From positions 2,795 through 66,794 of the forward strand of contig BQJV01000001.1 in assembly GCA_021604885.1 (NCBI GenBank): a stretch of DNA of 64,000 nt, in the 5' to 3' direction. A program made the position numbers and the translations under genes. The DNA is from Acidimicrobiales bacterium. GTDB lineage: Bacteria; Actinomycetota; Acidimicrobiia; Acidimicrobiales; Aldehydirespiratoraceae. Below, one piece after another: positions 2,355 through 37,715 of this stretch. The notes below the pieces were generated by a model. It saw nothing but the letters and a program-made list of their open reading frames with translations. It was not told the DNA's origin and ran no database searches. The stretch's first letter is position 1. Every line of letters starts with the position of its first letter.

Positions 2355-2792
2355 CTACCGGTCCCGCCGTTGTCGTTCCTTGAACTGCGCCAGCAGCTTG
2401 CGGGCCCGCTCGATCTCGCGCTGCTGACGCTTGGGCTTCGGGGTCTTGCCCTTGTCGTAGCCACCGAGGAGCAGAACGATCTTGTCGCCATGGAAGTGGA
2501 CAAAGACTCGCAGCAAGATCTTTTCGGGTGGCGCATCAAGATCGTCGGGCTCGTGGCCGAACATGCGGGCGATCTCGTCCGCGTCGTGCCGCACACGGAA
2601 CTCGTGCAAGCCCTGGCCGAGTGCCTTGAGCCACTCGGTCCTGACCAGGTCGATCCCTCGCTCCGCCAGGACGACCCGAATCGCTTCATCCAGAGCGGCG
2701 AACTTGAAGTCCGACAGAGCGTTGATGAACGCCTCGAACGGAATCGACCCATCGTCGGCCTCGAACGGCTCGGGCGTCCAGGGCGTGCTCAT
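2355..2792 (-). CDS. Gp49/HigB-like type II toxin (RelE superfamily)
   Basis: 145 aa. ..LKALGQGLHEFRVRHD..ILLRVFVHFHGDKIVLLLGGYDKGK.. is the layout typical of phage Gp49-like addiction toxins. It uses a TAG stop at 2355-2357. Confidence 0.75.
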   Translation of the reverse strand: MSTPWTPEPFEADDGSIPFEAFINALSDFKFAALDEAIRVVLAERGIDLVRTEWLKALGQGLHEFRVRHDADEIARMFGHEPDDLDAPPEKILLRVFVHFHGDKIVLLLGGYDKGKTPKPKRQQREIERARKLLAQFKERQRRDR

Positions 2793-3181
2793 CCCCAGAA
2801 GATGCAGGAGCGATCTGCGTCGATCTCGTCGAGGAGCTCCCCGACGTGCTGCGTTGGTTCTGCGTCCCAGTAGCGCTGGAACTTCGAGTTCCGGTCAGCC
2901 CAGTAGAGGGTCCACTCGTTGCGTTTCTTCACCTAGCCGAGTCGGGCGATCGGTGTGCGCGACCATTCCGGCCCGATCAAGTCGTTCCACGGCGGCCGGC
3001 AGTCGAAGACCGTCAGTCCTCGCGGCGTCTCGTCTACCTCGACCCGCATCTCGTCGCGGTACTCGGACGGCGTCTTCTCGTGCGCCCACTTCCGCACCCG
3101 GTTTACGTCGAGCTCAGGAATCATCATCCTCCCCGAGGCACCAAGGCCGAGTAGGCGGGGTGTGCTCGTAGAACCGCTCAC
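2789..3181 (-). pseudogene. DUF3024-like gene interrupted by an in-frame TAG
   Basis: ORF 2933..3181 (..IPELDVNRVRKWAHEKTPSEYRDEMRVEVDETPRGLTVFDCRPPWNDLIGPEWSRTPIARLG) stops at a TAG (2933-2935). The same frame continues VKKRNEWTLYWADRNSKFQRYWDAEPTQHVGELLDEIDADRSCIFWG to a TGA at 2789-2791. That TGA overlaps the toxin ATG (ATGA). Confidence 0.6.
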
Positions 3182-4110
3182 CTCGCCTCACGGGCTCCCG
3201 CATTGCTGCGTCATCCTTGGCGCTGAACAGGGACATCACACCACGCGCGGCTTCGTCTTGCTGCTTCCTGAGCCGGCGAACCTCCTCACGCATTGCGGGG
3301 AACTCCGCAGCGGCCTTGGCGAAGAGGCTGCTCATGATCCTCGTACCAGCCTCGTGATCGGTGGCGAAGATCATGTAGTAGATCGGGGACCCGTTCTCGT
3401 TCTTGATCTCCAGAGGGTGAGTCCAGCGGTAGCCGAGCACCGTCTCAAGCCGCCAGCGCATGAGGTTCAGGTAGTCGTCGCGCGCGTCCGACGGCTCGAT
3501 ACGTCCAACGAGGCGTGCCCTGTAGATCTCTCGCCACTCCTTACAGCCGTACATTGCGTCAATGGCTGCTTCGTCCTCGGGTCTGACAGCGGCACCGTCA
3601 ACGCGAAGCAGTCGGGTGAACATGGGGGGCCGCGAACAAGAGGAAGAGTTCGACCTTCGTCTTCTGGCCCGAACGGAAGTCGGCCAGCGCCTCCAGAGTT
3701 CGCCACTGCGCTTCCATTCCGTCCGGATCGACGAAGGCGAACGTCGGAGCCCACGCAACGTGCTTCAACTGATCGAGGACTCCCGGAACCTCGTGGTTGC
3801 AGTCACCGGGCACAACCAGGAAGTCCCGGTCGGGATAGTCAGCTCTGAGCGCAGCATCGAGCCCCGGGGCCTTGTTGGGCAGCTCGAAGAACCGCAGTCG
3901 GGTGAAGGGCGGGGTGTCGATCGAGAGCGCAATCCGTGCCGACCCCTCAACCTCACGGCCTGTGTGCCGTTCCTCGTTCTCGGCCACGCCCGCGAACACG
4001 TCGAGGTAGATCCGCTCGCTCAGGCTGCTCGAAGCGGTAGTGAATGCGTCGAGGTAGTCGCGGAGCAAGTCGAGCTTGCCGACGGTCCAATAGCCCCACG
4101 CACGACCCAC
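3114..4110 (-). pseudogene. three-Cys-motif partner protein TcmP-like gene, split by a +1 frameshift in a G6/C6 run
   Basis: ORF 3598..4110 (GTG start; MGRAWGYWTVGKLDLLRDYLDAF..YLDVFAGVAENE..GSARIAL..) ends ..LFLLFAAPHVHPTASR. ORF 3114..3758 continues in the other frame as ..MFTRLLRVDGAAVRPEDEAAIDAMYGCKEW... Removing one G from GGGGGG at 3624-3629 joins them as ..LFAAPMFTRLLRV... Confidence 0.6.
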
Positions 4111-4112
4111 AA

Positions 4113-4889
4113 TCAGTTCCCGCCGATCAGCACCGGCATCTCATCGTGGAGGGCCCCGTCGAGCTCACGCCCACCTGCCTTGGGTGTCCTGCCACCCCAT
4201 TGCTTGAAGAAGAAGGCAACACCTGCCTCTCCGCACTGGTCTCGGAGGTCGCGGACCCACTCCTCGTCCATCGGGCGGGCATTCGGCCCACTCTCGCCGC
4301 CAGCGATCAGCCAATCGATCGAGGTCAGGTCGAGGTTCGGCAACGGGCCGAGCAGCGGCTCCGCGCTGACGAAGCGGACTGCCGCATCGACCGATCGAAG
4401 GTGATCGAAACGGAAGGCGTAGCGATCGGTCTCGACGCTCACGCCCATCCAGACGTTCGACGGCCAATCCAGCTCGGCGGCCACAGCAGCGAGTCGCTTG
4501 GAGCGCTTGGTCAGCACTTGGTACGTGTGCTGCGGTGTCTCGGCCATCACGGTGAACACACGCTTGATGAAGTCGAGCGGCACATCCGGGTGGAAGAGGT
4601 CACTCATCGAGTTGACGAAGATGAGGCGTGGCGACTTCCACCGGTATGGCGCAGCCAGGGTGTCCTCGTGGACGGTCAACGCGAAGCCGGGGCCGCTCGT
4701 TCTCGGGTCGCCATCGTTCTGGTACTTCGCTTGGCCCATGGCTCGAAGCCGTTTCGCCAGGGTGAGCGCGTAGCAGTTGTCGCAGCCCGGCGAGGTCTTG
4801 TCGCACCCCGTGGTCGGGTTCCAGGTGACCTCGGTCCACTCGATGCCTGAGCGATCAGCCATGACCGGATGCTCCTGCGACGTCGCCAT
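4113..4889 (-). CDS. DUF5131 / phage Gp37-Gp68 family protein (three-Cys motif)
   Basis: 258 aa. ..[35 protein letters not shown].. and ..[40 protein letters not shown].. match my memory of this family. Its stop lies 2 nt from the TcmP GTG start. Confidence 0.8.
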
Positions 4890-4922: not shown

Positions 4923-6389
4923 TCATTCGGCATCACCCGTCCCGACGACCTCATCGAGGTCCACGCCAACACCTTCGAGGCTCTCGGCCAGAGCTCGGAA
5001 CTCCTCGAGTGCGGCTTCTAGGTCTTCGACGATCTCGGCAGCGATGACGCCGGGCGCCGGGAGGTTGTCGGTGTCTTCGAGGCTCTCGTCGCGGAGCCAG
5101 AAGACATCGAGGCTGACCTTGTCGCGCTCGATCAGATCGTCATAGGTGTACTTCTTGAACCTCTCGGACTCGACGCGCTGGTGGCGGCCGCCCGACTTGA
5201 AGCAGTCGACGAAGTCGTCGAGGTCGGCCCGAGCGATCGGGTTCTGCTTCAGCGTGAAGTGCTTGTTGGTCCGCAGGTCGTAGACCCACAGGTCCCGGGT
5301 CCAGGGGTGTTCGGCGCCTTCCTTGCGCTCGAAGAACAACACGTTGGCCTTCACGCCGTGGGCGTAGAAGATCCCGGTCGGGAGCCGCAGCAGTGTGTGG
5401 ACGTCGCAGTCATGGAGGAGGCGGCGGCGGACGGTCTCGCCGGCGCCAGCCTCAAACAGCACGTTGTCGGGAACGACCACTGCGGCGGTGCCGCCAACGC
5501 GGAGCAGGCCGACGATGTGTTGGACGAAGTTGAGTTGCTTGTTGCGGGTGGTGGTCCAGAAGTTCTCCCGCTCGTAGCTGTCCGACGACGACCGCCCGAA
5601 CGGCGGGTTCGACAACACCATGTCGAACCGCACTCCGGGGTCGTCCCGCAGGGCGTCGTCGACGTGTACCGGCGAGTCGGACTCGGGACTCTCGATACCG
5701 TGCAACAGCATGTTCATCGCGCACAGCCGGGCCGGGAGTTCGGCGATCTCCCACCCCGTGAACGCGCCAGATCGCAGATGCTCGCGCTGGTCGGGGTCGA
5801 GCGGCGAGAACCGTCTCACGATCGACTCGTACGCGCCGAGGAAGAAGCCACCCGTTCCGCAGGCCGGATCGCAGATGCGATCCGAGGTATCGGGTTGCAT
5901 CACGTCGACGATCGCCGAGATCAGCGCCCGGGGCGTGAAGTACTGGCCTGCTCCCCTGGCACCCTCGCGGGCTGTCTTCTCGATCAGACCCTCATATGCG
6001 TCACCCTTGAGGTCGGCATCGAGGCTGAGCCACTCGTGATCGTCAATGAAGTCCTTGATGAGCAGTTCGAGCTTGGCCGGGTTCTGGACCTTGTTACGGG
6101 CCTTGCGGAAGACAACGCCGAGCATGTTGTCGCCCGCTCCAAGGCTCGTCAGGATCTCGTTGTAGTGCACCTCGAGATCCGCACCGGATCGGCTCAAAAG
6201 TGACGGCCAGTCGAACCCTTCCGGCACGACCCGCTCCTCGCCGAGCAACTCGTACTGCTCATCGGCCATCTTCAGGAAGAGCAGGTAGGTCAGCTGCTCT
6301 AGGTAGTCGCCGTAGGACAACCCGTCGTCCCGTAGGACATCGCAGAAGTCCCAGAGTTTCTGGACGAGGGCTTGCGGATCGGTGCTCAT
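4923..6389 (-). CDS. hsdM: type I restriction-modification system, N6-adenine DNA methyltransferase subunit
   Basis: Uses the internal ATG at 6389, which forms an ATGA overlap with the hsdS stop. MSTDPQALVQKLWDFCDVLRDDG..GQYFTPRALI..DPACGTGGFF..VLSNPPFG (NPPF catalytic motif). Confidence 0.93.
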   Translation of the reverse strand: MSTDPQALVQKLWDFCDVLRDDGLSYGDYLEQLTYLLFLKMADEQYELLGEERVVPEGFDWPSLLSRSGADLEVHYNEILTSLGAGDNMLGVVFRKARNKVQNPAKLELLIKDFIDDHEWLSLDADLKGDAYEGLIEKTAREGARGAGQYFTPRALISAIVDVMQPDTSDRICDPACGTGGFFLGAYESIVRRFSPLDPDQREHLRSGAFTGWEIAELPARLCAMNMLLHGIESPESDSPVHVDDALRDDPGVRFDMVLSNPPFGRSSSDSYERENFWTTTRNKQLNFVQHIVGLLRVGGTAAVVVPDNVLFEAGAGETVRRRLLHDCDVHTLLRLPTGIFYAHGVKANVLFFERKEGAEHPWTRDLWVYDLRTNKHFTLKQNPIARADLDDFVDCFKSGGRHQRVESERFKKYTYDDLIERDKVSLDVFWLRDESLEDTDNLPAPGVIAAEIVEDLEAALEEFRALAESLEGVGVDLDEVVGTGDAE

Positions 6390-7666
6390 ACGACCTTCTT
6401 CGAAGCAGAGCCGGATGGTTCCGAGGATGGTCCCACCGCGTCCAGTGTGTTGCTGTCGAAATCCCACCTTCCGGAGAAGGCGGCTGCAAGGACAGCGCGC
6501 CGAAGGTGACCGGAGCGCTTCACTGCGCCGGCACATCCTTTCGCCAGGCGCACCGACTCGAGGACGACCGTCTCGGCCCGTCGAGCCACCTCGCCCTGCG
6601 TGTCAAGGTCCGGAATCGGGATCTCCATGCTCTTCACGAGACCGATGCTTAGGTTCGGCTGCACTCCGCCGGACGCGAGCTTGCGGCTGGCTTCATATCG
6701 CGCATTGAGGAACGCCAGCAGATAGTCACCGTTGACCAACGACCGATCGAAGTCGATCGCTGCGCAGGCCTGATTGCACGTGGATTCGATCTCCAAGCGA
6801 GCTGCCCTCCCTCGGGTCTGACCCTCGCCGTACATAGCAACCAACACGGTTCCACGCGGCCAGAGCTTGACGCTTGTCTCCTCCAACGCCTGGGCAGTGA
6901 TTAGCTCGCTCGGAGCTGCAATCGACCGGGAGTTGACGGCACCCGAGTTGACCCAGGGGATCGTGCCACCGGTCCAGTACCGAGGCTCCGACCGCTTCGG
7001 CGTCGCGCCGCTGCCAACCCGTGCGACTTCGGCGATTTGACGAACCGGCCAATCACTTGAGAAGAGGCCCTGCAGTGCGATCGGGGCTAGCGCATCAGCC
7101 TTGGCGCGGGCAGCATCCGCGGCTGCCGCTGCACTATCGAGGCGGGACATGTGTTCCTCGATCCAGTCGACGATTCGGCGCTGTTGGTCACCAGGCGCCA
7201 CCGAGATCGGGAACGCGGCAAGCCCGCGCTTCCCCAGGTGCCGGATATTGACACCACGACCGGCTTCGCCGAATCGCCCTGTCAGAGCGGCGTAGTAGCA
7301 AAACCAGAACAGGTAGCCGCGATCGACGCCATGCGGGCGCAGCCGCAGGAGAGTGTTCTGAAAACAGCAGCCCTCCAGCTCGCCGGTCCAGATCGCAGGC
7401 TTGCCGACTTCGTTGGGGCTACCCGAGGCCTCGTTCAGTAGGAGGTCCCCGGGAGCGAGGCAGTACTTCTCGAAGTCAGCATCATCGAAGTTCATCTCCT
7501 TGACGTCATCGAGGCTGATCCCATCCCAGGTCACATTCGCAGAGCGGAGGTAGGGCCTCATCTGCTCGCCATGGTGGTGCTGTGGCGAACGCTGCCGACC
7601 TAGCTGAACATCTGCAACCCCGCCGATGGTCGACCACGCCCACCCGCCCGGTAGCTCGTTGTTCAT
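6386..7666 (-). CDS. hsdS: type I restriction-modification system, specificity subunit
   Basis: 426 aa with two target-recognition halves (..LPGGWAWSTIGGVADVQLGRQRSP.. and ..WPVRQIAEVARVGSGATPKR..) separated by a central conserved helix region. It has ATGA overlaps with both hsdR and hsdM. Confidence 0.9.
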   Translation of the reverse strand: MNNELPGGWAWSTIGGVADVQLGRQRSPQHHHGEQMRPYLRSANVTWDGISLDDVKEMNFDDADFEKYCLAPGDLLLNEASGSPNEVGKPAIWTGELEGCCFQNTLLRLRPHGVDRGYLFWFCYYAALTGRFGEAGRGVNIRHLGKRGLAAFPISVAPGDQQRRIVDWIEEHMSRLDSAAAAADAARAKADALAPIALQGLFSSDWPVRQIAEVARVGSGATPKRSEPRYWTGGTIPWVNSGAVNSRSIAAPSELITAQALEETSVKLWPRGTVLVAMYGEGQTRGRAARLEIESTCNQACAAIDFDRSLVNGDYLLAFLNARYEASRKLASGGVQPNLSIGLVKSMEIPIPDLDTQGEVARRAETVVLESVRLAKGCAGAVKRSGHLRRAVLAAAFSGRWDFDSNTLDAVGPSSEPSGSASKKVV

Positions 7667-10500
7667 GCTGCGAGCGCCTGGGTGAGTTCGTGGAGCAGCG
7701 GGTTGAGGTCGTCGCCGAAGAGTTGGCGGGCTCGGCCGAGGCCGCCGTGTTCACTGAAGGGGGCTCCGGTGAGATCTCGGGGAGCGATGGTGAGGCTGGC
7801 AGCGAGGTGGTCTTTGATCATGTGGAGGTAGGCGAGTTGGTCGTGGGTGAAGGCGCGGCCGGCGTTGTCCTGTTGAAGGAGCCAGGCGTCGAAGCGTTCG
7901 TTGACGAGGTCGGGGTAGGCGACGAGTTCGTCGGTGTTGCCGAGTGCGTAGCGGACAATGCTGACGAGGTCGGTGTTGAGGCGATGGCCTGAGCCTCGCA
8001 CCTTGCTGGCGTCGAGGGCTTCGTAGGCCTGCCACAGCATGTCGGGGGTCCAGCTGCGGGGTGGGCGTTCGATGGCGTTCGCCAGTTCTCGGATGTCGGC
8101 GTAGGTGAGACCGCCCCCGTAGGGCTGGCTGTAGAGGATCTGCAGGGCGGTGATCTCGTCGCGGTGCTCGTCGATGAACTCGCGGAACGAATCGATCGTT
8201 TTGCGGGCCCGGTCGGTGGCGTCCTTGGAGAACTGGCCGGAGATGACTCGGTCCTTGGTGGCGGCGTCGATGACCTGTTCGTAGCTGCGCCGGACGTCGA
8301 GGAGCTTCTCGCGCAGCTCTGAGTTGCCGGCGAGCGGCTGGAGTGCAGTCTCGACCAGTTGCTTGCGTGCGGCGGCAACCTGGTCGCCACCGGGATCGTC
8401 GAGACCGCTGGCGGCTTGGGCTTCGGCGTAGTGGCGGTCGGGGTCGAGCGCTTGGACGAGTTGGTGGGAGAGCTGGGTGAGACTCATCCCGGCGGCGGCT
8501 TCGAGCTCGGCGCGGTCGGGGCCGCTGATGCGCTTGTCGAGGCGGGCAAGCCGGGAGGCGATGGAGGAGACGACGGCTTCGTCGGTGACGCCGAGGCCGA
8601 TCTGGTTGAGAAGCTTGTCGAAGCCGACGCCGTGCTTGCGTTCGAGGGGGACGGTGTCGTGGAGCTCGGTCTCAGTGACGCCAACGGCGTCGACCAGGAC
8701 GAAGTGGTCCTTGGCGGTGGCGTCAGGGGTGACGATGCGAAGGTCGTCGTCGTTGATGATGCGGACGCCGCGGCCCTTCATCTGTTCGAAGAAGTTGCGG
8801 CTCTTGACCATGCGCATGAACACGACGCACTCGATGGGTTTGACGTCGGTGCCGGTGGCGATCATGTCGACGGTGACGGCGATGCGGGTGTCGTAGCCGG
8901 TGCGAAACTGGGCGAGAAGCTCGTCGGGCTTGTGGCCAGACTCGGCGGCCTTGTAGGTGATCTTCACCGCGCCCATGTTCGACAGGCCGAACTCCTCGCG
9001 GACGATCTGGACGATGTCGTCGGCGTGGCTGTCGTCCTTGGCGAAGATCAGGGTCTTCGGGATGTGTTGGAGGCGGCCGTCGTCGCGCACGATCCGGTCA
9101 GGAAACATGACCGGCATCGAGTCGCGCAGAGTGCGCACGATGGTGCGTATCTGATCGCGGGCGACAACCTTTCGGTCGAGCTCAGCAGGGTCGTAGTCGA
9201 GGTCCTCGTCGATGCGATCGAAGCGTTGCTCGCGGGTCTCGCGATCTCGGAACTCGGTGACCATCCCGGCGTCGACCTTGCCGCCGGACTCGCTGATCTC
9301 GGTGCGGATGCGAAACACGTCGAAGTCGACGTTGACCCGGTCGGCGACGGCTTCTTCGTGGCCGTACTCCATGACGAGGTTCTGGTCGAAGAATCCGAAC
9401 GTCTGCTTGCCGGGCGTGGCGGTGAGGCCGATCAGGAAGGCGTCGAAATACTCGAGGACCTGGCGCCACACCCCGTAGATCGATCGATGGCATTCGTCGA
9501 CAATGATCACGTCGTAGGACTCGATCGGAACCGCCGAGTTGTAGACCACCTCGACCGGCCGACCGGGGGTCATGTCGAAGCTGGACTTCTCTTCGAGGTC
9601 CTCGTCGAGCTCCTCGCCCCGAAGGATCGAGTAGATCCTCTGGATCGTCGAGACGTGGACCTTGGTCGCCGTCTCGTCGGCGATGTCGAGGTTCGATGAG
9701 GTGAGGCGGCGGGCGTTGTAGAGCTCGGTGAACTTGCGGCCGTCGTCGGGCGTATCGAACCCCTCGAACTCACGGATCGTCTGCCGGCCGAGGTTGCCAC
9801 GGTCGACGAGGAAGAGAATCCGCTTGGCACCAGCGTGGCGAAGCAGTCGGTAAGCGATGTTGGCGGCGGTGAAGGTCTTGCCCGAGCCGGTCGCCATCTG
9901 GATCAGCGCCTTGGCCCGGTTCTCCTTGAGCGACTTCTCGAGATTGCGGATGGCTTCTTCTTGGGCAGGCCACAGACCGACGGGATCGAGGTCCGGTAGC
10001 AGCTGAATTCCGCCTCGAAGGGTCGCGTTGCCGCCGAAGTTGACGTGGTCTTCGTGCCAGCGGGCGAGGGTCTCGGGACGGTGGAAGGTGTACACGCGGC
10101 GTGACGTCGGGTCGGGGTCGAGGCCGCAGGTGAAGCGCGTCTCCTTGCCTGTCGACTCATAGCCAAACGGAAGTGCACCGTCGACGAGGAAGGCGGGGAG
10201 CTCGCCGGGAAAGTTGGTCTGGTATTTGTGGGTCTGCCATTCGACGCCGGTGAGGGTGGTGCCGACCTTCTTGGCTTCGATGACCCCGACGGCCTGGCGG
10301 TCGACGAAGAGCACATAGTCGGCGGGTCCGGCTGCGGTCGGCACCTCGCGGACTGCGACGCCCTGGGCGGCGGCGATGGCGGCGTGCTTGTAGTCCTGCA
10401 CGATCCACCCGCACGCGGCGAGCTGGGCATCGATGTCGATGCGAGCGCGCTGTTCGGGTGCGAGGTACTCGGAGGCTTCGTCCGCCATAGGTCCTTCCAT
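7663..10500 (-). CDS. hsdR: type I restriction enzyme, R (helicase-nuclease) subunit, EcoEI-like C-terminal domain
   Basis: 945 aa. Has an HSDR_N-like N-terminus (..ADYVLFVDRQAVGVIEAKK..), helicase motif I (MATGSGKT), a DEAH-type box (IIVDECH) and a long C-terminal extension. The start may instead be the ATG at 10488. Confidence 0.93.
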   Translation of the reverse strand: MEGPMADEASEYLAPEQRARIDIDAQLAACGWIVQDYKHAAIAAAQGVAVREVPTAAGPADYVLFVDRQAVGVIEAKKVGTTLTGVEWQTHKYQTNFPGELPAFLVDGALPFGYESTGKETRFTCGLDPDPTSRRVYTFHRPETLARWHEDHVNFGGNATLRGGIQLLPDLDPVGLWPAQEEAIRNLEKSLKENRAKALIQMATGSGKTFTAANIAYRLLRHAGAKRILFLVDRGNLGRQTIREFEGFDTPDDGRKFTELYNARRLTSSNLDIADETATKVHVSTIQRIYSILRGEELDEDLEEKSSFDMTPGRPVEVVYNSAVPIESYDVIIVDECHRSIYGVWRQVLEYFDAFLIGLTATPGKQTFGFFDQNLVMEYGHEEAVADRVNVDFDVFRIRTEISESGGKVDAGMVTEFRDRETREQRFDRIDEDLDYDPAELDRKVVARDQIRTIVRTLRDSMPVMFPDRIVRDDGRLQHIPKTLIFAKDDSHADDIVQIVREEFGLSNMGAVKITYKAAESGHKPDELLAQFRTGYDTRIAVTVDMIATGTDVKPIECVVFMRMVKSRNFFEQMKGRGVRIINDDDLRIVTPDATAKDHFVLVDAVGVTETELHDTVPLERKHGVGFDKLLNQIGLGVTDEAVVSSIASRLARLDKRISGPDRAELEAAAGMSLTQLSHQLVQALDPDRHYAEAQAASGLDDPGGDQVAAARKQLVETALQPLAGNSELREKLLDVRRSYEQVIDAATKDRVISGQFSKDATDRARKTIDSFREFIDEHRDEITALQILYSQPYGGGLTYADIRELANAIERPPRSWTPDMLWQAYEALDASKVRGSGHRLNTDLVSIVRYALGNTDELVAYPDLVNERFDAWLLQQDNAGRAFTHDQLAYLHMIKDHLAASLTIAPRDLTGAPFSEHGGLGRARQLFGDDLNPLLHELTQALAA

Positions 10501-10595: not shown

Positions 10596-11870
10596 ATGTA
10601 CGTTCGAACGGTGAGGTCACAGGTACCGGCCGTCCCCGCGCCGCAGGAGGATTGGATCTACAACGAGCACCAGGGGAGAAACGAGCTCGCTGGGGCGACG
10701 ATCGGGGTATCGCTATCCGGGGGCGGCTACCGAGCGACCCTCTTTGCAGCGGGCGCAGTTGCGGCGCTGGCGGACGGCCAAGTATGGGACCAAGTCAAGT
10801 GGGTGGCGTCGGTCTCGGGCGGCTCTTTCGTCAACGCGGCCGCAGGGCTGGAGCTCCCAGATGATCCCACCGCGCGAGCAGTCGACCGGTTCCTCCGAAT
10901 GGTGGCCGAGCGAGTCGCACGGCGCCTTTGGCCCATCGCCCTGCCACAGCGAACCTCAAGAATCCGAGGTCTCGCGTTGGTTGCGAGGAGCTACGACGCC
11001 GGCATCCAACGCCACTGGGTCGGAGCTGATCGGGGCGCTGTGCCCTTGGCGAACTTGCAGCACCCAAGCAGGACCCACGCCTTCCTTGCGGTCGACCTCG
11101 CAACACTCAGCCCGGTCGTGCTCAGCGATCGCCTCGTGTACTCGCCGGGTCTTCGAGACGAGCCGGTCGCGCTGGCGCCTGGGGGACTGCGCCTTGCCAC
11201 AGCCATTCGCAGCTCGGCCTCCTTCCCAGGGCTTCCCTCGACTCACGTGCGTTCTGAAGACCTCGGCACGGTGTACCACCCGCTCTACGACGACCTGCAC
11301 CTCGGCGATGGAGGTGTCTGGAACAACCTCGGTACGGAGTGGGAGCGCCTCCTCGGCGAGGTAGGACGCGTAGATCTCGGAGACGTCGCAGCGTTCGCTC
11401 GGCCTGTCGAGTTCCATGTGGTCGTGGACGCTTCCGCTCCCGCAAAGCGCCCGAAGACCTGGCGGACACGGCGGTGGCCTACGACCCTTGACTGGCCGTT
11501 CCTGTCCCTCGACCGGGCGCTCCATGCGGCATTCCAGAGCACGCTTGAAAACAGCAGGCGGGCATTGCGTGACGGGTCCGGAAAGATCCCTCGGCGGATC
11601 TTGCATGTTTCGTTGGAAGAGATCCCTCGTACCCAGCAGGTTCTCTCAGCCCTGGTTGGAGGCGCCGAGCCGGAGGAGTGGGCCGCCGTCGCAGATCAGA
11701 ATGGGACGGTCGGGACCGCCTGTCCGACCCTATGGGGCATTCGCGGACTGCCGGCCGTACACCTGATGGCGCACGGATATGCCCAGACCGCTGCCTGTCT
11801 CACCGCGCGTGGTGTCCCCCTCCAGCACTTCGAGATCCCCCATGAGCGCATATACAGAGCGATCACGTGA
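10596..11870 (+). CDS. patatin-like phospholipase
   Basis: Oxyanion Gly-rich loop GVSLSGGGYRAT, nucleophile elbow SVSGGS (GxSxG) and catalytic Asp motif LGDGGVWNNLG. Transcribed divergently from hsdR. Confidence 0.8.
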   Translation: MYVRTVRSQVPAVPAPQEDWIYNEHQGRNELAGATIGVSLSGGGYRATLFAAGAVAALADGQVWDQVKWVASVSGGSFVNAAAGLELPDDPTARAVDRFLRMVAERVARRLWPIALPQRTSRIRGLALVARSYDAGIQRHWVGADRGAVPLANLQHPSRTHAFLAVDLATLSPVVLSDRLVYSPGLRDEPVALAPGGLRLATAIRSSASFPGLPSTHVRSEDLGTVYHPLYDDLHLGDGGVWNNLGTEWERLLGEVGRVDLGDVAAFARPVEFHVVVDASAPAKRPKTWRTRRWPTTLDWPFLSLDRALHAAFQSTLENSRRALRDGSGKIPRRILHVSLEEIPRTQQVLSALVGGAEPEEWAAVADQNGTVGTACPTLWGIRGLPAVHLMAHGYAQTAACLTARGVPLQHFEIPHERIYRAIT

Positions 11871-20781: not shown

Positions 20782-22484
20782 CCATCAATTGAATCTGCGA
20801 GTTCGACACTCCCTGACGGCACCGACCGCCAGGAGTCGAGGTTTGGGTCACCAGCCTGCGGCTGAGGATTCGGGCGGTGAATCTGAACTCTCGTTGGCAG
20901 GATAACTGCCTCTCCCGATACGAGCGCTTCGCCAGTCCTGAGAGATGGGAGCACGCCAGCGAGCCCTGCGACTGCGTCTGGCAATGCTGCTCGGACTGCG
21001 GATTGGTCGGCGCCGTTCGTAAGCCGGAGCGCGATGATCGTTCCGCACTGCGCAAGGGATGTCTCGGGCAACTCAGAGGGGCGCTGGCTGACCATCATCA
21101 ACCCGATGCCGTACTTGCGCCCCTCGCGCGCGATGCGATCCGCAGCCGCTTGGGCTAGTCCACCTCTGAGGTAGCGGTGCGCCTCCTCAAGCACGAAAAG
21201 GACCGGCCGTGGGCGCCCGATGCCGCTTCCTGTACTACGTACCCCGAGTTCGAATAGCAGATCGAGGACGAGCCCGATCGCTACGTCGGCGACCTCAAAC
21301 GGCACGCCACTGAAGTCGAGCACTGACACCGGGCGGTGCGCGCCAAGCCACCGCGCTGCCAAGCCGGGCAGAGAATCCGGCTCAGTAGGGTCAGGAATTG
21401 CGAGGAAGAAGTCGAAGCGAGAGTCGGTCAGGCGAAGCCGGAGTCTGTCCGGTGCCGGGTTGTAGTGGCCGAATGTCGCCCCCTTGAACGGGGCTGCGTT
21501 GCCGAGCGCGTGGGGTTCGAAGGTCGCAGCGACGAGCGCCGCCGCGTCTCCGCTGTCCACTAGAGCCAGATCACCCGTTGCCCTATCCCGAATGGTCGCA
21601 CGATTGTCGTAGTCAAGCCGGTACCAGACTGCTCGAAGATCGTAGGGAATCGGCGTGTCGGCCGTGATGGACTCGGCCTCCATGTCAAGCCACTCGGCAG
21701 CGATCGCGAACTCACGCCGTGCTTCGACGACGAGCTCGGCGAACCGGTCGGCGACCGTCCGGCTCTCGACACCGCAGAGCACTGAGAGAAGGCGCGACGC
21801 CGGGAGGGCCCAGTAGGGGATCTGAAGCTGGGTCGCCAGATCGGAGCCAACTGACAGGACCGAACCCGCATCACCTACTGCCGAGGCGTACTCACCATGC
21901 GGATCGACAACGACGATGTTGGCCGACGGCCAGTCAGCCTCGAACCTCTGAAGGAGCGTGGCCACGGCGCTGGTCTTCCCGGATCCTGTCGAGCCGACAA
22001 CGGCGCTGTGGCGCGTAACCAACCTTGAGGCATCCAATGTCAACGGTACATCGGGCGCCGCAGCGAGGACCCCCACTGAGACGCGTTCCGCGCCAGCCGG
22101 GGGGTAAACGGAGGCGAGGTCGTCACTCGTGGAGAAGTGCACCTCGTCATCTAGACCTGGATAGATACTCACTCCACGGTGGAAGCTGCCAAGCCCGTCC
22201 ACCTCCCCAAGCAGCTGGACCTGGAGCCACCGCTTCCCCTGCTCAATGCTGTGAGCTGGCGCAAGCGGTGGAGAAAGCTCTGAGATGCCTACGAGGACAA
22301 CTGACCCGAGGAGGGTGATCGAGCCCTGGGGAATCCGAACGATAGAACCAACCTGACCGACTGGGACTACACGCCCGCGCCACAACGGAGCGGTTCCCGC
22401 TAGTTCAGGTGAGAGCTCGACGGTCACTGTGGAACCAAGAACCTGCCGAACGCGCCCGATGCGCGTCCCGTCAGTCGACTTCAT
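20739..22484 (-). CDS. HerA-like (DUF87) ATPase, partner of SIR2
   Basis: From the internal ATG at 22484: MKSTDGTRIGRVRQVLGSTVTVEL.. Walker A is VVGSTGSGKTS and Walker B-like is VLFVLEEAHRYL. Its start overlaps the SIR2 3' end by 14 nt. Confidence 0.85.
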   Translation of the reverse strand: MKSTDGTRIGRVRQVLGSTVTVELSPELAGTAPLWRGRVVPVGQVGSIVRIPQGSITLLGSVVLVGISELSPPLAPAHSIEQGKRWLQVQLLGEVDGLGSFHRGVSIYPGLDDEVHFSTSDDLASVYPPAGAERVSVGVLAAAPDVPLTLDASRLVTRHSAVVGSTGSGKTSAVATLLQRFEADWPSANIVVVDPHGEYASAVGDAGSVLSVGSDLATQLQIPYWALPASRLLSVLCGVESRTVADRFAELVVEARREFAIAAEWLDMEAESITADTPIPYDLRAVWYRLDYDNRATIRDRATGDLALVDSGDAAALVAATFEPHALGNAAPFKGATFGHYNPAPDRLRLRLTDSRFDFFLAIPDPTEPDSLPGLAARWLGAHRPVSVLDFSGVPFEVADVAIGLVLDLLFELGVRSTGSGIGRPRPVLFVLEEAHRYLRGGLAQAAADRIAREGRKYGIGLMMVSQRPSELPETSLAQCGTIIALRLTNGADQSAVRAALPDAVAGLAGVLPSLRTGEALVSGEAVILPTRVQIHRPNPQPQAGDPNLDSWRSVPSGSVELADSIDGWRRGTAPGEGRKP

Positions 22485-23607
22485 CGGACGACCCAACCTG
22501 TCGGGCCAAGAACGACGTGAGGTGCCCGAAGTCGCCCAGGAGGAACTCCCCAGCTTCGTAGATACCCGGAATCTCTGCGTCGAAGCTCCACGGTGCGCGA
22601 CGCCCGTTGACAATTGCTTCGGTCCGCCCGAGCGCAACCAAGTTGCGCGTTCTGCTTGCCCGATGCGCAACGCTGTCTGGGATCTCGTCAAAGCAGAGAG
22701 CTAGCACTTCGGATCTCGGGTGACGGTCCGCCGCATCGAAGAGCATCTCGTTCAGGTGATCGTCACCAAACGAGAAACCCGACGTGATCGTGATGGTCTC
22801 TGGTTCCACGAGTGCTCGCCTGAAGCGGTCCATCAGGACCACGAATGGCACACGCCTAGACTCCTCGTACTTCTCGTCGGATGGGTAGATTGCCACGGAG
22901 CCTTCGTCGTCGCCCCGACCAACGCGCACGATCGTCGAGGACGAATCGCCGAGCACGCGCCAGTTCGTCGAACCATGCAGCTTCCAGACCCGTGCGAATC
23001 CCGCGGGCAACGCCCAGCGCTCCGGAGCGTCGCGTGGTTCGACAAGCTCGGCCATGAGGGGTGCTCTATGGGTTCCGATGAAGCCGTCAAAGTATGGGAC
23101 GCCGACGGCCTCAAGCCCCTTCTCGATGAGTAGGTCGTAGTTGACCGTGAACAGCTCGAGCGGGCGCTGATAGTCCATCCGACCAGCCCAGGATGCGAGG
23201 CGTTCGAAGGGACCAAGGTCGGCGTCAGCGGTCTCGATCACTCCCATGATCGCCTCGCAAATACCGCTGTCCAGCTCGGCAGCCGATTCCCCCGTGAGAC
23301 CTCCGACATTCTCGCCAGGCTCAAGAAGACCGGACACCCGCCGGATCCGGCTCAGAGCAGCCTCAAGGTTCCGTCCATCAAGCTGGCCAACGAGCGAGTC
23401 CCGGAGGCTCAAGTCGATTCTCTCGAGGACCTGTTCTTCCAGCCGGGCGAGTGTCGGTAAGCCCGCGGCGCAGCTCGCACCCGCCCCGATGAGCATGCAG
23501 ACGTGGCGGGCCCTCGAAGCGAGCTTGGTAGCGAGCTCCTCGGCCAGCACACGAGGGTCGTGACCCCCCGTAGGCCGGCTTGCCGCTTCGTCACCGTCGC
23601 TTCCCAT
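22471..23607 (-). CDS. SIR2-family (SIR2_2-like) protein
   Basis: ..CMLIGAGASCAAGLPT.., ..LFTVNYDLLIEKG.., ..VWKLHGSTNW.. and ..ITSGFSFGDDHLN... The start is taken at MGSDGDEAASR; the ORF is open to 23691. Confidence 0.8.
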   Translation of the reverse strand: MGSDGDEAASRPTGGHDPRVLAEELATKLASRARHVCMLIGAGASCAAGLPTLARLEEQVLERIDLSLRDSLVGQLDGRNLEAALSRIRRVSGLLEPGENVGGLTGESAAELDSGICEAIMGVIETADADLGPFERLASWAGRMDYQRPLELFTVNYDLLIEKGLEAVGVPYFDGFIGTHRAPLMAELVEPRDAPERWALPAGFARVWKLHGSTNWRVLGDSSSTIVRVGRGDDEGSVAIYPSDEKYEESRRVPFVVLMDRFRRALVEPETITITSGFSFGDDHLNEMLFDAADRHPRSEVLALCFDEIPDSVAHRASRTRNLVALGRTEAIVNGRRAPWSFDAEIPGIYEAGEFLLGDFGHLTSFLARQVGSSDEVD

Positions 23608-23684
23608 GCAACCGACTCTAGGAAGCGAGGGTGACAGGTTGGGGCTTTTACCCACGTTTCGAGCGAGAAGTACCACCCTGTGCC

Positions 23685-23713
23685 GGACCATCCGTTAGAA
23701 GATCCGTTAGAAG
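23685..23713. repeat. candidate integrase arm-type site, right end of element A
   Basis: GGACCATCCGTTAGAAGATCCGTTAGAAG. It matches 1957-1985 with one mismatch and lies 57 bp left of att copy 2. Confidence 0.55.
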
Positions 23714-23769: not shown

Positions 23770-23814
23770 TGGTGGCGGGGGCAGGATTTGAACCTGCGAC
23801 CTTCGGGTTATGAG
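23770..23814 (-). repeat. att core copy 2: 3' half of tRNA-Met(CAT)
   Basis: Identical 45-mer TGGTGGCGGGGGCAGGATTTGAACCTGCGACCTTCGGGTTATGAG. The right flank (CACGCTGGG..) does not form a tRNA 5' half. Confidence 0.85.
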
Positions 23815-25993: not shown

Positions 25994-29433
<3,440 letters not shown>

Positions 29434-31614: not shown

Positions 31615-32501
31615 CCCCTGAACCCATCCGGCTGAGCGGCGGCGGCCTCGAACTGGCCGCTGATTTGTGGGGCGACCCTGACGACCCTCCGGTGGTGTTT
31701 CTGCACGGGGCCGGTCAGAGCCGCCGGGCCTGGGACGAGGCCGCCCGCGCGGTCGTCCGCGCCGGCTGGCACGCCGTGACTGTGGATCACCGCGGTCACG
31801 GTGACAGTGACTGGCCCGTTGAGTCTTCCTATGACTGGGACCACTTCGGCGACGACGTCGAAGCACTGATCGACCGGTTCTCCCGCCCTCCCGTGGTAGT
31901 GGGTGCATCGCTCGGCGGAATGTCAGCCCTGATCGCTCAGGGACGCTCAGTCACCCAGCTCTACCGCGCGTTGGTACTCGTCGACGTGACGCCGCGCATG
32001 GAACTCGACGGCGTGAAACGCATCGTCGGGTTCATGGCCGCGCATCCCGAAGGCTTCGACACCCTTGATGACGCCTCGCAGGTCATCGCCGACTACACCG
32101 GTCGTCCCAAACCAGACTCCCCCGACGGGCTGCGCCAGGTCCTGCGCCATGGACCGGACGATCGCTGGCGTTGGCATTGGGACATCAGATTCCTCGAAGG
32201 TCGAGCCGACGAGATCCTCAGCTCACAGGAAGGGACCGAACGGAGCGACGCGATCCGAGCGATGCTGCTCGACGCCGCTGCCCGGGTGCGGGTCCCGACC
32301 CTGGTCGTGCGGGGCGCACAAAGCGACATGGTTTCGCCCGAAGCCGTACGCGAGTTCGTCGACATCGTTCCGGGCTCGCGGTTCGTCGACGTCGCGGACG
32401 CCGGTCACATGGTCGCCGGCGACCAGAACGACCACTTCGTCGATGCAGTCCTCGAATTCCTTTCCGGCCTCAGCCCCGACACGAAAGCCGAGCGCCCATG
32501 A
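31611..32501 (+). CDS. alpha/beta-fold hydrolase
   Basis: ..VVFLHGAGQSRRAWD.. and nucleophile elbow VVGASLGG (GxSxG). A late HMVAGDQ supplies the catalytic His. Confidence 0.85.
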   Translation: MTPEPIRLSGGGLELAADLWGDPDDPPVVFLHGAGQSRRAWDEAARAVVRAGWHAVTVDHRGHGDSDWPVESSYDWDHFGDDVEALIDRFSRPPVVVGASLGGMSALIAQGRSVTQLYRALVLVDVTPRMELDGVKRIVGFMAAHPEGFDTLDDASQVIADYTGRPKPDSPDGLRQVLRHGPDDRWRWHWDIRFLEGRADEILSSQEGTERSDAIRAMLLDAAARVRVPTLVVRGAQSDMVSPEAVREFVDIVPGSRFVDVADAGHMVAGDQNDHFVDAVLEFLSGLSPDTKAERP

Positions 32502-33217
32502 CCGCCTCTTCTCTGGATGCCTCCGCCGACGATCATCCCGATCTCCCCGCCCGCATCGGAGCCGCAGCCGCCATGCGGCGTCTCTCTCATGCCATCGTGT
32601 CGCACCGCGTGGACATCTCGGACCTGCACCGGATCGCTGCAGCCGCCGACGAACTCTCTTCCCAGATCGAGGCGCAGCCCGCGAGAGGTCGTCTCGACGA
32701 GATGATGGCCAGTCCGCGCTTCGCGGCCGCGCTGGACAGCGGCTCACTGGGACAGGCCGTCGAGGACGGCGCGTTCGTCGATCTGTTCCACGACTCGCCG
32801 GTGTCGGGATCGGCGAACCCGCTCGGCATGGGTCTCCGGATCAGCCGTGACGGTGACGAGGCAGTGGGCACGATCGTTCTTGGCCCCGGATGGGAAGGCG
32901 CCCCCGGGCGTGGGCACGGCGGCATCGTCGCGGCCTGCGTCGACGAGACCATCGGTGGGCTTCTGCCGATCATCGGCACCATGGCATTCACCGGCGAGCT
33001 CACCCTGAGATACCGGGCGCCGTGCCCACTCGCCACACCGCTCGAATTCAGAGCTCGCCTGAACCGACGGGACGGCCGAAAGCTCTACATCGAGTGCACC
33101 GGCACAAGCCCCGAAGGTCTCTTCGTCGAATCCACCGCGCTGTTCATCGCCGTCCAACTCGACCAACTCGCAGCCCTCATCGACCAACCCCCTATCGAAA
33201 AGGACACCCGACCGTGA
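32498..33217 (+). CDS. hotdog-fold (PaaI-like) thioesterase
   Basis: ATG at 32498 (ATGA overlap). ..GPGWEGAPGRGHGGIVAACVDETIGGLL.. is the typical PaaI/DUF4442-type active-site stretch. Confidence 0.7.
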   Translation: MTASSLDASADDHPDLPARIGAAAAMRRLSHAIVSHRVDISDLHRIAAAADELSSQIEAQPARGRLDEMMASPRFAAALDSGSLGQAVEDGAFVDLFHDSPVSGSANPLGMGLRISRDGDEAVGTIVLGPGWEGAPGRGHGGIVAACVDETIGGLLPIIGTMAFTGELTLRYRAPCPLATPLEFRARLNRRDGRKLYIECTGTSPEGLFVESTALFIAVQLDQLAALIDQPPIEKDTRP

Positions 33218-37670: not shown

Positions 37671-37715
37671 TGGTGGCGGGGGCAGGATTTGAACCTGCGA
37701 CCTTCGGGTTATGAG
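37671..37715 (-). repeat. att core copy 3: 3' half of tRNA-Met(CAT)
   Basis: Identical 45-mer, preceded by the hairpin at 37635-37665. The right flank (CGTTGAGAC..) does not form a tRNA 5' half. Confidence 0.85.

Follow-up and report, generated by a model that had tools for sequence, protein, structure and literature searches.

A probably recent inactivation of a DUF5131-TcmP gene pair in the distal part of a type I restriction-modification operon on a tRNA-integrated element of an Acidimicrobiales bacterium

The 64,000-nucleotide stretch analyzed here (the window; contig BQJV01000001.1, positions 2,795 to 66,794, from the metagenome-assembled genome (MAG) "Acidimicrobiales bacterium DHS20C19") carried on its minus strand adjoining genes for a DUF5131 protein and a TcmP protein, the second of which was broken by a one-base insertion. 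The locus was probably a recently inactivated DUF5131-TcmP cassette, corresponding to the PADLOC candidate PDC-M41 and placed distally in a type I restriction-modification (R-M) operon on a tRNA-integrated, relaxase-bearing element. According to the list of open reading frames (ORFs) and Pfam, the genes read, 5' to 3', hsdR-hsdS-hsdM-DUF5131-tcmP-DUF3024-Gp49-like-Xre-type helix-turn-helix (HTH). The pairing and its association with defense are already catalogued and the locus is a new, broken member; new here are the predicted RlmJ-like fold of TcmP with its DP(N/D)G motif, the consistently higher conservation of DUF5131, and the presence of the pair in a Gordonia phage immunity cassette.

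The DUF5131 gene (Gp37/Gp68; 4113-4889, minus strand; PF07505) was intact and encoded a predicted radical S-adenosylmethionine (SAM) superfamily protein of 258 amino acids. The tcmP gene began with a GTG at 4110, 2 nt past the DUF5131 stop codon (4113-4115), and was split into two fragments on the same strand. The 5' fragment (3598-4110; ORF list and translation) encoded 162 native residues plus 8 out-of-frame residues (HVHPTASR) before a stop, 170 amino acids in all, and was deposited as hypothetical protein GJM36642.1; the 3' fragment (3114-3623, 169 codons in the shifted frame) aligned to residues 163-331 of full-length homologues and was deposited as GJM36641.1. The frame of 3598-4110 was left, and the other frame of 3114-3623 resumed, in GGGGGG at 3624-3629 (C6 on the coding strand), the site of a +1 insertion. 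Deletion of one base restored AAPMF and gave a 331-amino-acid product reading ...ELFLLFAAPMFTRLLRV.... The original prediction, that the TcmP frame was split exactly at GGGGGG and that deleting one G restores it, was thereby confirmed by the ORF list, the translation and the TIGR04474 match, and its assignment of the two proteins to the DUF5131 and TcmP families also held, both PF07505 and TIGR04474 being matched above their cutoffs.

Repaired TcmP scored 161.6 bits against TIGR04474 (cutoff 53), in a match that crossed the break. It had 949 homologues; nearly all of the 120 listed were approximately 320-345 amino acids long, with 97-100% coverage, and a few were shorter (80-90% coverage). The consensus of the homologue alignment across the break was ELFLLFAAPMFxRLL. 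Because full-length homologues cover the repaired 331-amino-acid frame and the alignment reads through the site, this frame is, on the homologue evidence, the true ancestral one and not a chance arrangement of ORFs. In the closest relatives, the metagenome scaffolds L002 and L003 (89% amino acid identity) and contig L085 (95% amino acid and 92% nucleotide identity), tcmP was one uninterrupted gene, and the 2-nt spacing from DUF5131 was also found in L002 and L003. According to a structure model built on an intact homologue (P0001, 89% identical to the window protein), the 5' fragment holds strands beta1-beta5 of a methyltransferase fold, and the 3' fragment encodes strands beta6-beta7 and the C-terminal helices. 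A frameshift just past beta5 would remove beta6, beta7 and these helices, so that the 170-amino-acid product should not be able to function.

The gene following tcmP, DUF3024 (2789-3124, minus strand), was also broken, by an in-frame TAG at 2933-2935, and its halves matched positions 8-63 and 67-112 of the PF11225 profile. In L085 the same codon was TAC (Tyr) and the 112-amino-acid gene was intact; judged by this comparison, the operon contains, besides tcmP, another recently formed pseudogene, DUF3024. The ratio of nonsynonymous to synonymous substitution rates (dN/dS) between the window and L085 was 0.09 for TcmP and 0.065 for DUF3024. Such low values indicate that purifying selection acted on both genes until a short time ago and, therefore, that both lesions are recent. 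Two real, recent and independent inactivating mutations are the favored explanation of these alignments.

The original prediction had left open whether the tcmP split was a sequencing error, decay or a switch; real decay, ordinary pseudogenization, was most likely the cause. The evidence on the G6 tract came from consensus contigs. Those of the Logan assemblies DRR328264 (13.2 kb) and DRR328265 (7.2 kb) matched the window at 100% identity, including the G6 tract (0 mismatches in 9.1 kb and 7.2 kb, respectively); both assemblies probably come from the same raw data as the MAG and a minority G5 allele is possible, which counts against decay. A literature search gave no paper for the MAG or for the accessions of the two runs. 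At the break site, L085 read GCT GCC CCC ATG (C5), with an intact 331-amino-acid TcmP and an intact DUF3024, and the sole gap in its 4-kb alignment with the window was the extra base at G6. L002 and L003 read GCT GCA CCG ATG, without a homopolymer. The lineage therefore appears to have gained the C5 run by a synonymous change, followed by one extra C. An artefact of sequencing or assembly, with a real tract of G5 and an unbroken tcmP in the organism, was unlikely: the source is a MAG, homopolymer length is a classic indel error, and several database TcmP fragments also had out-of-frame tails, but G6 was exact in two separate runs with a different assembly pipeline, none of the other 11 six-base G/C runs of the window was tied to a broken ORF (10 lay within unbroken ORFs and 1 was intergenic), and the neighboring TAC-to-TAG change, present in the same contigs, is a substitution and not a homopolymer-type error.

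Slipped-strand mispairing in the G tract might instead toggle tcmP reversibly, as in the contingency loci of some R-M systems. The break did lie exactly in a homopolymer, within a candidate defense gene sharing an operon with type I R-M, and several database fragments were broken within approximately 15 codons of the same place. Known phase switches usually have tracts of at least 7-9 nt. The tract here was of 6 nt and unexceptional (12 G/C runs of 6 in the window vs. approximately 44 expected from its dinucleotide composition under a first-order Markov model, and none of 7 or longer), and it was not conserved, being C5 in L085 and missing from L002 and L003. In each of the 82 other loci examined, tblastn recovered TcmP in one unbroken piece, neither Logan contig was broken by heterogeneity, and the second lesion, in DUF3024, is irreversible. 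An on/off switch was consequently very improbable. Hardly credible was a third alternative, that some full-length TcmP is still made through +1 ribosomal frameshifting at CCC-C, whether programmed or leaky. CCC-N sites are prone to +1 shifts, and if tRNA-Pro slipped by +1 on GCC CCC C|AT G, exactly the conserved sequence would be read (...AAP-MFT...); against this, no stimulatory element was apparent, the next 0-frame codon (CAT) is a sense codon that is not rare, conserved signals were not seen upstream, and the relatives encode TcmP in one frame.

Broken TcmPs were also found among the database proteins. Several of the fragments P0292, P0300, P0308, P0313, P0331, P0339, P0358, P0343 and P0374 had out-of-frame tails starting at profile positions approximately 147-166, and two C-terminal fragments began at Met163, close to the break in the window. 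A hotspot for breaks at TcmP positions 147-166 was considered, and was inseparable from ascertainment bias or long-read homopolymer errors.

DUF5131 matched PF07505 over residues 14-252 (profile positions 2-243 of 243) with 339.4 bits, against a gathering threshold of 28.9 (E 1.5e-101). It was also matched by the PADLOC profiles PDC-M41B (6.3e-112) and PDC-M30B (1.5e-106), by phrog_2045 of PHROG and, with a score far under the family cutoff, by the radical-SAM family TIGR04471. Radical SAM features were present: a three-Cys cluster motif with an aromatic residue and a GGE SAM-binding motif, and both C29-x6-C36-x2-C39-Y40 and G197-G198-E199-S200-G201 were invariant in 65 homologues. By its CX6CX2C-Tyr and GGE motifs, the protein encoded in the window is thus an intact member of the radical-SAM superfamily. 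Its structure model was of moderate quality (predicted local distance difference test score, pLDDT, 68.9, with residues 20-70, including the Cys loop, below 50). RadicalSAM.org places DUF5131 in Megacluster-5-2 and spore photoproduct lyase in Megacluster-5-3 (PMC9477430). Synonymous divergence (dS) between the window and L085 was 0.10 for DUF5131 (4113-4889 vs. L085 8001-8777), 0.26 for tcmP, 0.43 for DUF3024 and 0.51 for hsdM; the low value of DUF5131 could come from a recent recombination patch or from constraint at the nucleotide level.

The TcmP model, on homologue P0001, was confident (pLDDT 90.4; predicted template modeling score, pTM, 0.88). The top Foldseek matches in the PDB were RlmJ (4blu_A, E 1.4e-4, probability 1.00, template modeling (TM) scores 0.42/0.48), a 23S rRNA m6A2030 methyltransferase, and the DUF519 protein 2oo3 (TM 0.45/0.54); below them were only other class I SAM methyltransferases. 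A search of the viral structure library BFVD agreed with this result, giving generic methyltransferases only. The likeness to RlmJ/DUF519 extended from the class I fold to the Y-x-D-x-x-A-G motif I region and the motif IV Asp. In hhalign, ..YLDVFAG..ERHTGREVEGSARIAL of TcmP was paired with ..YLDTHAGAG..ERTGEYLEGIARI of Escherichia coli RlmJ (motif I region), in a weak, local match of 54 columns (probability 9.5%). An alignment of the window TcmP with those of two Gordonia phages, a Synechococcus phage and Nocardioides, Deinococcus and Sinorhizobium plasmids, plus RlmJ, showed Y35, D37, G41, G56, E76 and D128 (motifs I, II and IV) to be invariant. TcmP differed from RlmJ in having DP(N/D)G or DQQ(G/A) in place of DPPY (VDPDG in the window, DPxG or DQQ(G/A) in distant TcmPs, the Asp alone being invariant), a helical insert between beta5 and beta6, a conserved C-terminal tail with the sequence GERFYEHxPP and an obligate radical-SAM neighbor, and in not matching the DUF519 hidden Markov model (HMM). 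The model points to a class I SAM-methyltransferase-fold protein of the SAM-binding type, with the rRNA m6A methyltransferase RlmJ as its nearest structural match. TcmP retains Asp/Gly in motif I, Glu in motif II and Asp in motif IV, but fails the catalytic-motif test for N6-adenine methyltransferases. PDB sequence searches with both proteins gave nothing, save a PerR match (E 0.25) that was discarded since it disagreed with the predicted secondary structure. A hypervariable target-recognition segment was also considered for TcmP and rejected, divergence being even along the protein.

The tight pairing of the two genes, noted in the original prediction, held across related loci: DUF5131 was directly upstream of and co-directional with tcmP in 75 of 82, on the same strand and in the same order, and three of the exceptions were contig edges. 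The two genes were instead convergent in pNOCA01 (a Nocardioides plasmid), a Deinococcus plasmid, the Gordonia phages Fairfaxidum and BaxterFox, and a Synechococcus phage. BaxterFox (NC_031226.1) carried at approximately 32197-32928 (28198-28929, plus strand, in locus L093) an unannotated DUF5131 homologue, 70% identical to that of the window and convergent with the TcmP homologue gp42; at this position the record has two small hypothetical genes (gp40 and gp41) on the opposite strand. The 475-amino-acid "immunity repressor" of this phage was considered as a protein hiding a DUF5131 domain and contained no such domain, the true DUF5131 being on the other strand. A conserved third gene was sought next to the pair: the downstream neighbors were heterogeneous, and DUF3024 followed the pair only in the closest relatives.

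Conservation was higher for DUF5131 than for TcmP in 74 of 74 loci (medians of 73% vs. 51% identity). In the islands of L008, L014, L016 and L023, HsdM and DUF5131 were 88-94% identical to those of the window, TcmP only approximately 60%, and HsdS, where detected, 26-27%; more generally, HsdS was 24-41% identical to that of relatives whose HsdR and HsdM were up to approximately 90% identical. These identities suggest a much more rapid turnover of the partner (TcmP) and specificity (HsdS) genes than of the enzymes. The contrast between DUF5131 and TcmP is as expected if a catalytic subunit is under constraint and its partner evolves fast. The TcmP profile matched 4,564 representative clusters (50% identity) at E of 1e-3 or lower. 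DUF5131 was present in 176 phage records, mostly solo and 40-47% identical, whereas members of the TcmP-paired subtype shared at least 68% identity, even when Acidimicrobiia were compared with Gordonia phages.

The neighborhood survey agreed with the R-M, defense and mobile-element context originally described, with type I methyltransferases, McrBC and phage immunity cassettes being found near the pair. A type I methyltransferase was the commonest upstream neighbor (10 of 122 neighbor proteins scanned), and ResIII, PIN, TrwC, integrase and GmrSD proteins were also recurrent upstream. HsdM homologues were found in 16 of 82 pair-bearing loci, and in two Acidimicrobiia loci (L077 and L081) the pair lay between hsdS and hsdM, the literal "embedded" configuration that defines the PADLOC PDC candidates. 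As many of these islands are related to each other, the R-M enrichment is not a count of independent events. In pNOCA01 the pair followed an N6-methylase, an AAA family ATPase and a McrC family protein (McrBC). In Fairfaxidum and BaxterFox it lay between the integrase and the immunity repressor, with tcmP abutting the repressor gene directly downstream (the Fairfaxidum genes are gp42 and gp43); the integrase/repressor region of such phages has been described as a hotspot for prophage-expressed defense genes (PMC5559632). In Sinorhizobium meliloti, a TcmP gene stands next to the defense gene Hna in a list of genes upregulated together (PMC12445080).

In the window, all three type I R-M subunit genes were intact, with their diagnostic domains, on the minus strand: hsdR, the restriction subunit (7663-10488, 941 amino acids by gene call, the ORF extending to 10500; ResIII, DEAD, SWI2_SNF2 and EcoEI_R_C domains, found by Pfam on the identical Logan contig), hsdS, the specificity subunit (6386-7666, 426 amino acids; Methylase_S), and hsdM, the N6-adenine methyltransferase subunit (4923-6389, 488 amino acids; HsdM_N and N6_Mtase). 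A gap of 33 nt, without a terminator-like site on the minus strand, separated hsdM from the start of DUF5131. This close, same-strand arrangement, the 16 loci with HsdM homologues and the pairs inside hsdS-hsdM would fit a non-autonomous accessory of the type I R-M enzyme, providing an extra modification or regulating HsdMSR, but such a role was improbable. The frequent occurrence of the pair without any R-M system weakens it: approximately four-fifths of the loci had no type I R-M within 10 kb, and the pair was also found by McrBC, by other methyltransferases or alone in prophage immunity cassettes. In addition, the R-M genes of the window stayed intact while tcmP was lost. The pair is thus not an obligate component of type I R-M, with HsdM in only 16 of 82 loci.

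Among known systems, the pair resembled PDC-M41 (A, TcmP-like; B, DUF5131) most directly: both components matched and adjoined (M41B 6.3e-112, M41A 1.4e-25), and the attachment to type I R-M is the same kind of context as that from which the candidate was derived. The PADLOC PDC sets, assembled through "guilt-by-embedding" in BREX, DISARM and type I R-M systems, are described as 145 untested candidates (Payne et al., bioRxiv 10.1101/2024.01.29.577857). The difference is that the A component is frameshifted in the window. PDC-M30 was matched almost equally by its DUF5131 component (1.5e-106), whereas its partner, PDC-M30A, was only weakly like TcmP (5.3e-5 over residues 118-259). A literature search found no assay of PDC-M41, and papers in which PDCs were tested did not include M41 or M30. 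Likewise, no experimentally defined function was found for DUF5131 or TcmP in the searchable literature, as had originally been stated. The hint of a DNA-modification or defense role, also given in the original prediction, fitted the R-M, defense and mobile context but was not new, the pair being already PDC-M41. The TIGR04474/PF07505 pairing was reproduced, with HMM scores above the curated cutoffs, adjoining genes and 2-nt spacing; it differed here in that the full-length TcmP frame was interrupted by the +1 frameshift, and the family definitions themselves carry no function.

Radical SAM enzymes have a precedent in defense, in prokaryotic viperins and Ophion OpnA; viperins act on free nucleotides. 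Spore photoproduct lyase was similar to DUF5131 in its megacluster class (5-3 vs. 5-2) and in being among the weak top structural matches, but none of these proteins (spore photoproduct lyase, viperins or OpnA) had a significant sequence or structural match to DUF5131. Ophion and other radical SAM defense systems were rejected as kin, their partners being unrelated (PHP and PRTase in Ophion). The defense cassettes of actinobacteriophage prophages were similar in position, with the Fairfaxidum and BaxterFox pair in the described hotspot, but no defense phenotype has been assigned to these DUF5131/TcmP genes.

A mechanism may be proposed for the intact pair, in which DUF5131 and TcmP would act jointly on nucleic acid, or on a nucleotide. 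SAM and the target would be bound by TcmP, the fast-evolving partner, which might also flip out a base, and the highly conserved DUF5131 would perform radical chemistry on the substrate so presented. The cassette would then be an autonomous, mobile module of defense type and not part of the R-M enzyme. In the window, the +1 C insertion in the C5 run would truncate TcmP after strand beta5 and its fold would be unable to form. Given the sequences and models, modification of nucleic acid by the intact pair, with a defense or anti-restriction role, has somewhat less than an even chance. More speculative still is an autonomous two-protein system with new chemistry, in which a diversifying RlmJ-like partner might present a DNA or RNA base and a near-invariant radical SAM enzyme might install or destroy an undescribed modification, for anti-phage or anti-restriction functions in lysogens and conjugative elements.

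Several results weigh against this interpretation of the pair. The activity of both proteins is predicted from sequence and models only. The PDB matches of the DUF5131 model, lipoyl synthase and spore photoproduct lyase, were weak (E 9e-3 to 2e-2); they are compatible with the partial TIM-barrel fold of radical SAM enzymes but are not proof of it. The structural matches of TcmP were modest (TM 0.42-0.54), the catalytic DPPY motif was not found in it, and it had no match in Pfam or PHROG, including the Pfam methyltransferase models and the DUF519 HMM. Type I R-M was near only approximately one-fifth of the related loci, many of these islands being mutually related, and the downstream neighbors showed no pattern and were often housekeeping genes.

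Downstream of DUF3024 was a pair of putative toxin and antitoxin (TA) genes, also on the minus strand: a Gp49/HigB-like gene (2355-2792, 145 amino acids), with a PF05973 Gp49 match (E 9.3e-5, 22.9 bits) that was weak and just under the 23.9-bit cutoff, and an Xre-type HTH gene (2004-2336; HTH_31, 9.2e-16, and HTH_3, 1.1e-15). The placement originally given to the DUF5131-TcmP pair, between the R-M operon and a TA module on a mobile element, was right overall, except that DUF3024 (2789-3124) intervenes between tcmP and the TA pair.

The element spanned approximately 22 kb and was bounded by 45-nt direct repeats corresponding to a tRNA 3' end, at 1802-1846 (left boundary) and 23770-23814, with a third copy at 37671-37715; alignment showed an exact core of 37 nt in all three (0 expected). 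Each copy included CCA and had a terminator-like hairpin directly ahead of it. ARAGORN and Rfam found no complete tRNA and no RNA family over the window, so that the only tRNA-like sequence in it was the 45-nt attachment (att) repeat. The three copies suggest that elements have integrated in tandem at a single tRNA gene. The cargo included a TrwC/TraI relaxase, a tyrosine integrase, and patatin-like and SIR2-like genes. The patatin-like phospholipase gene (10596-11870, plus strand, opposite to the R-M genes) lay between hsdR and the relaxase gene and was absent from L085, in which the relaxase gene abuts hsdR; judging from this comparison, it was likely a separate cargo insertion. A protein of 406 amino acids with a SIR2_2 domain, which is frequent in defense systems, was encoded next to the second att repeat (22471-23691, minus strand).

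Taken alone, the locus is of small importance, as a newly inactivated copy of a candidate system that is already catalogued. The pair in general is a worthwhile experimental target, with approximately 4,500 TcmP clusters and DUF5131 in 176 phage genomes, and TcmP as a putative SAM-binding, RlmJ-like fold, together with the combination of a slow-evolving enzyme and a fast-evolving partner, provides leads for testing. Intact pairs lie beside the immunity repressor in culturable temperate Gordonia phages, in which knock-outs and phage challenge are routine.

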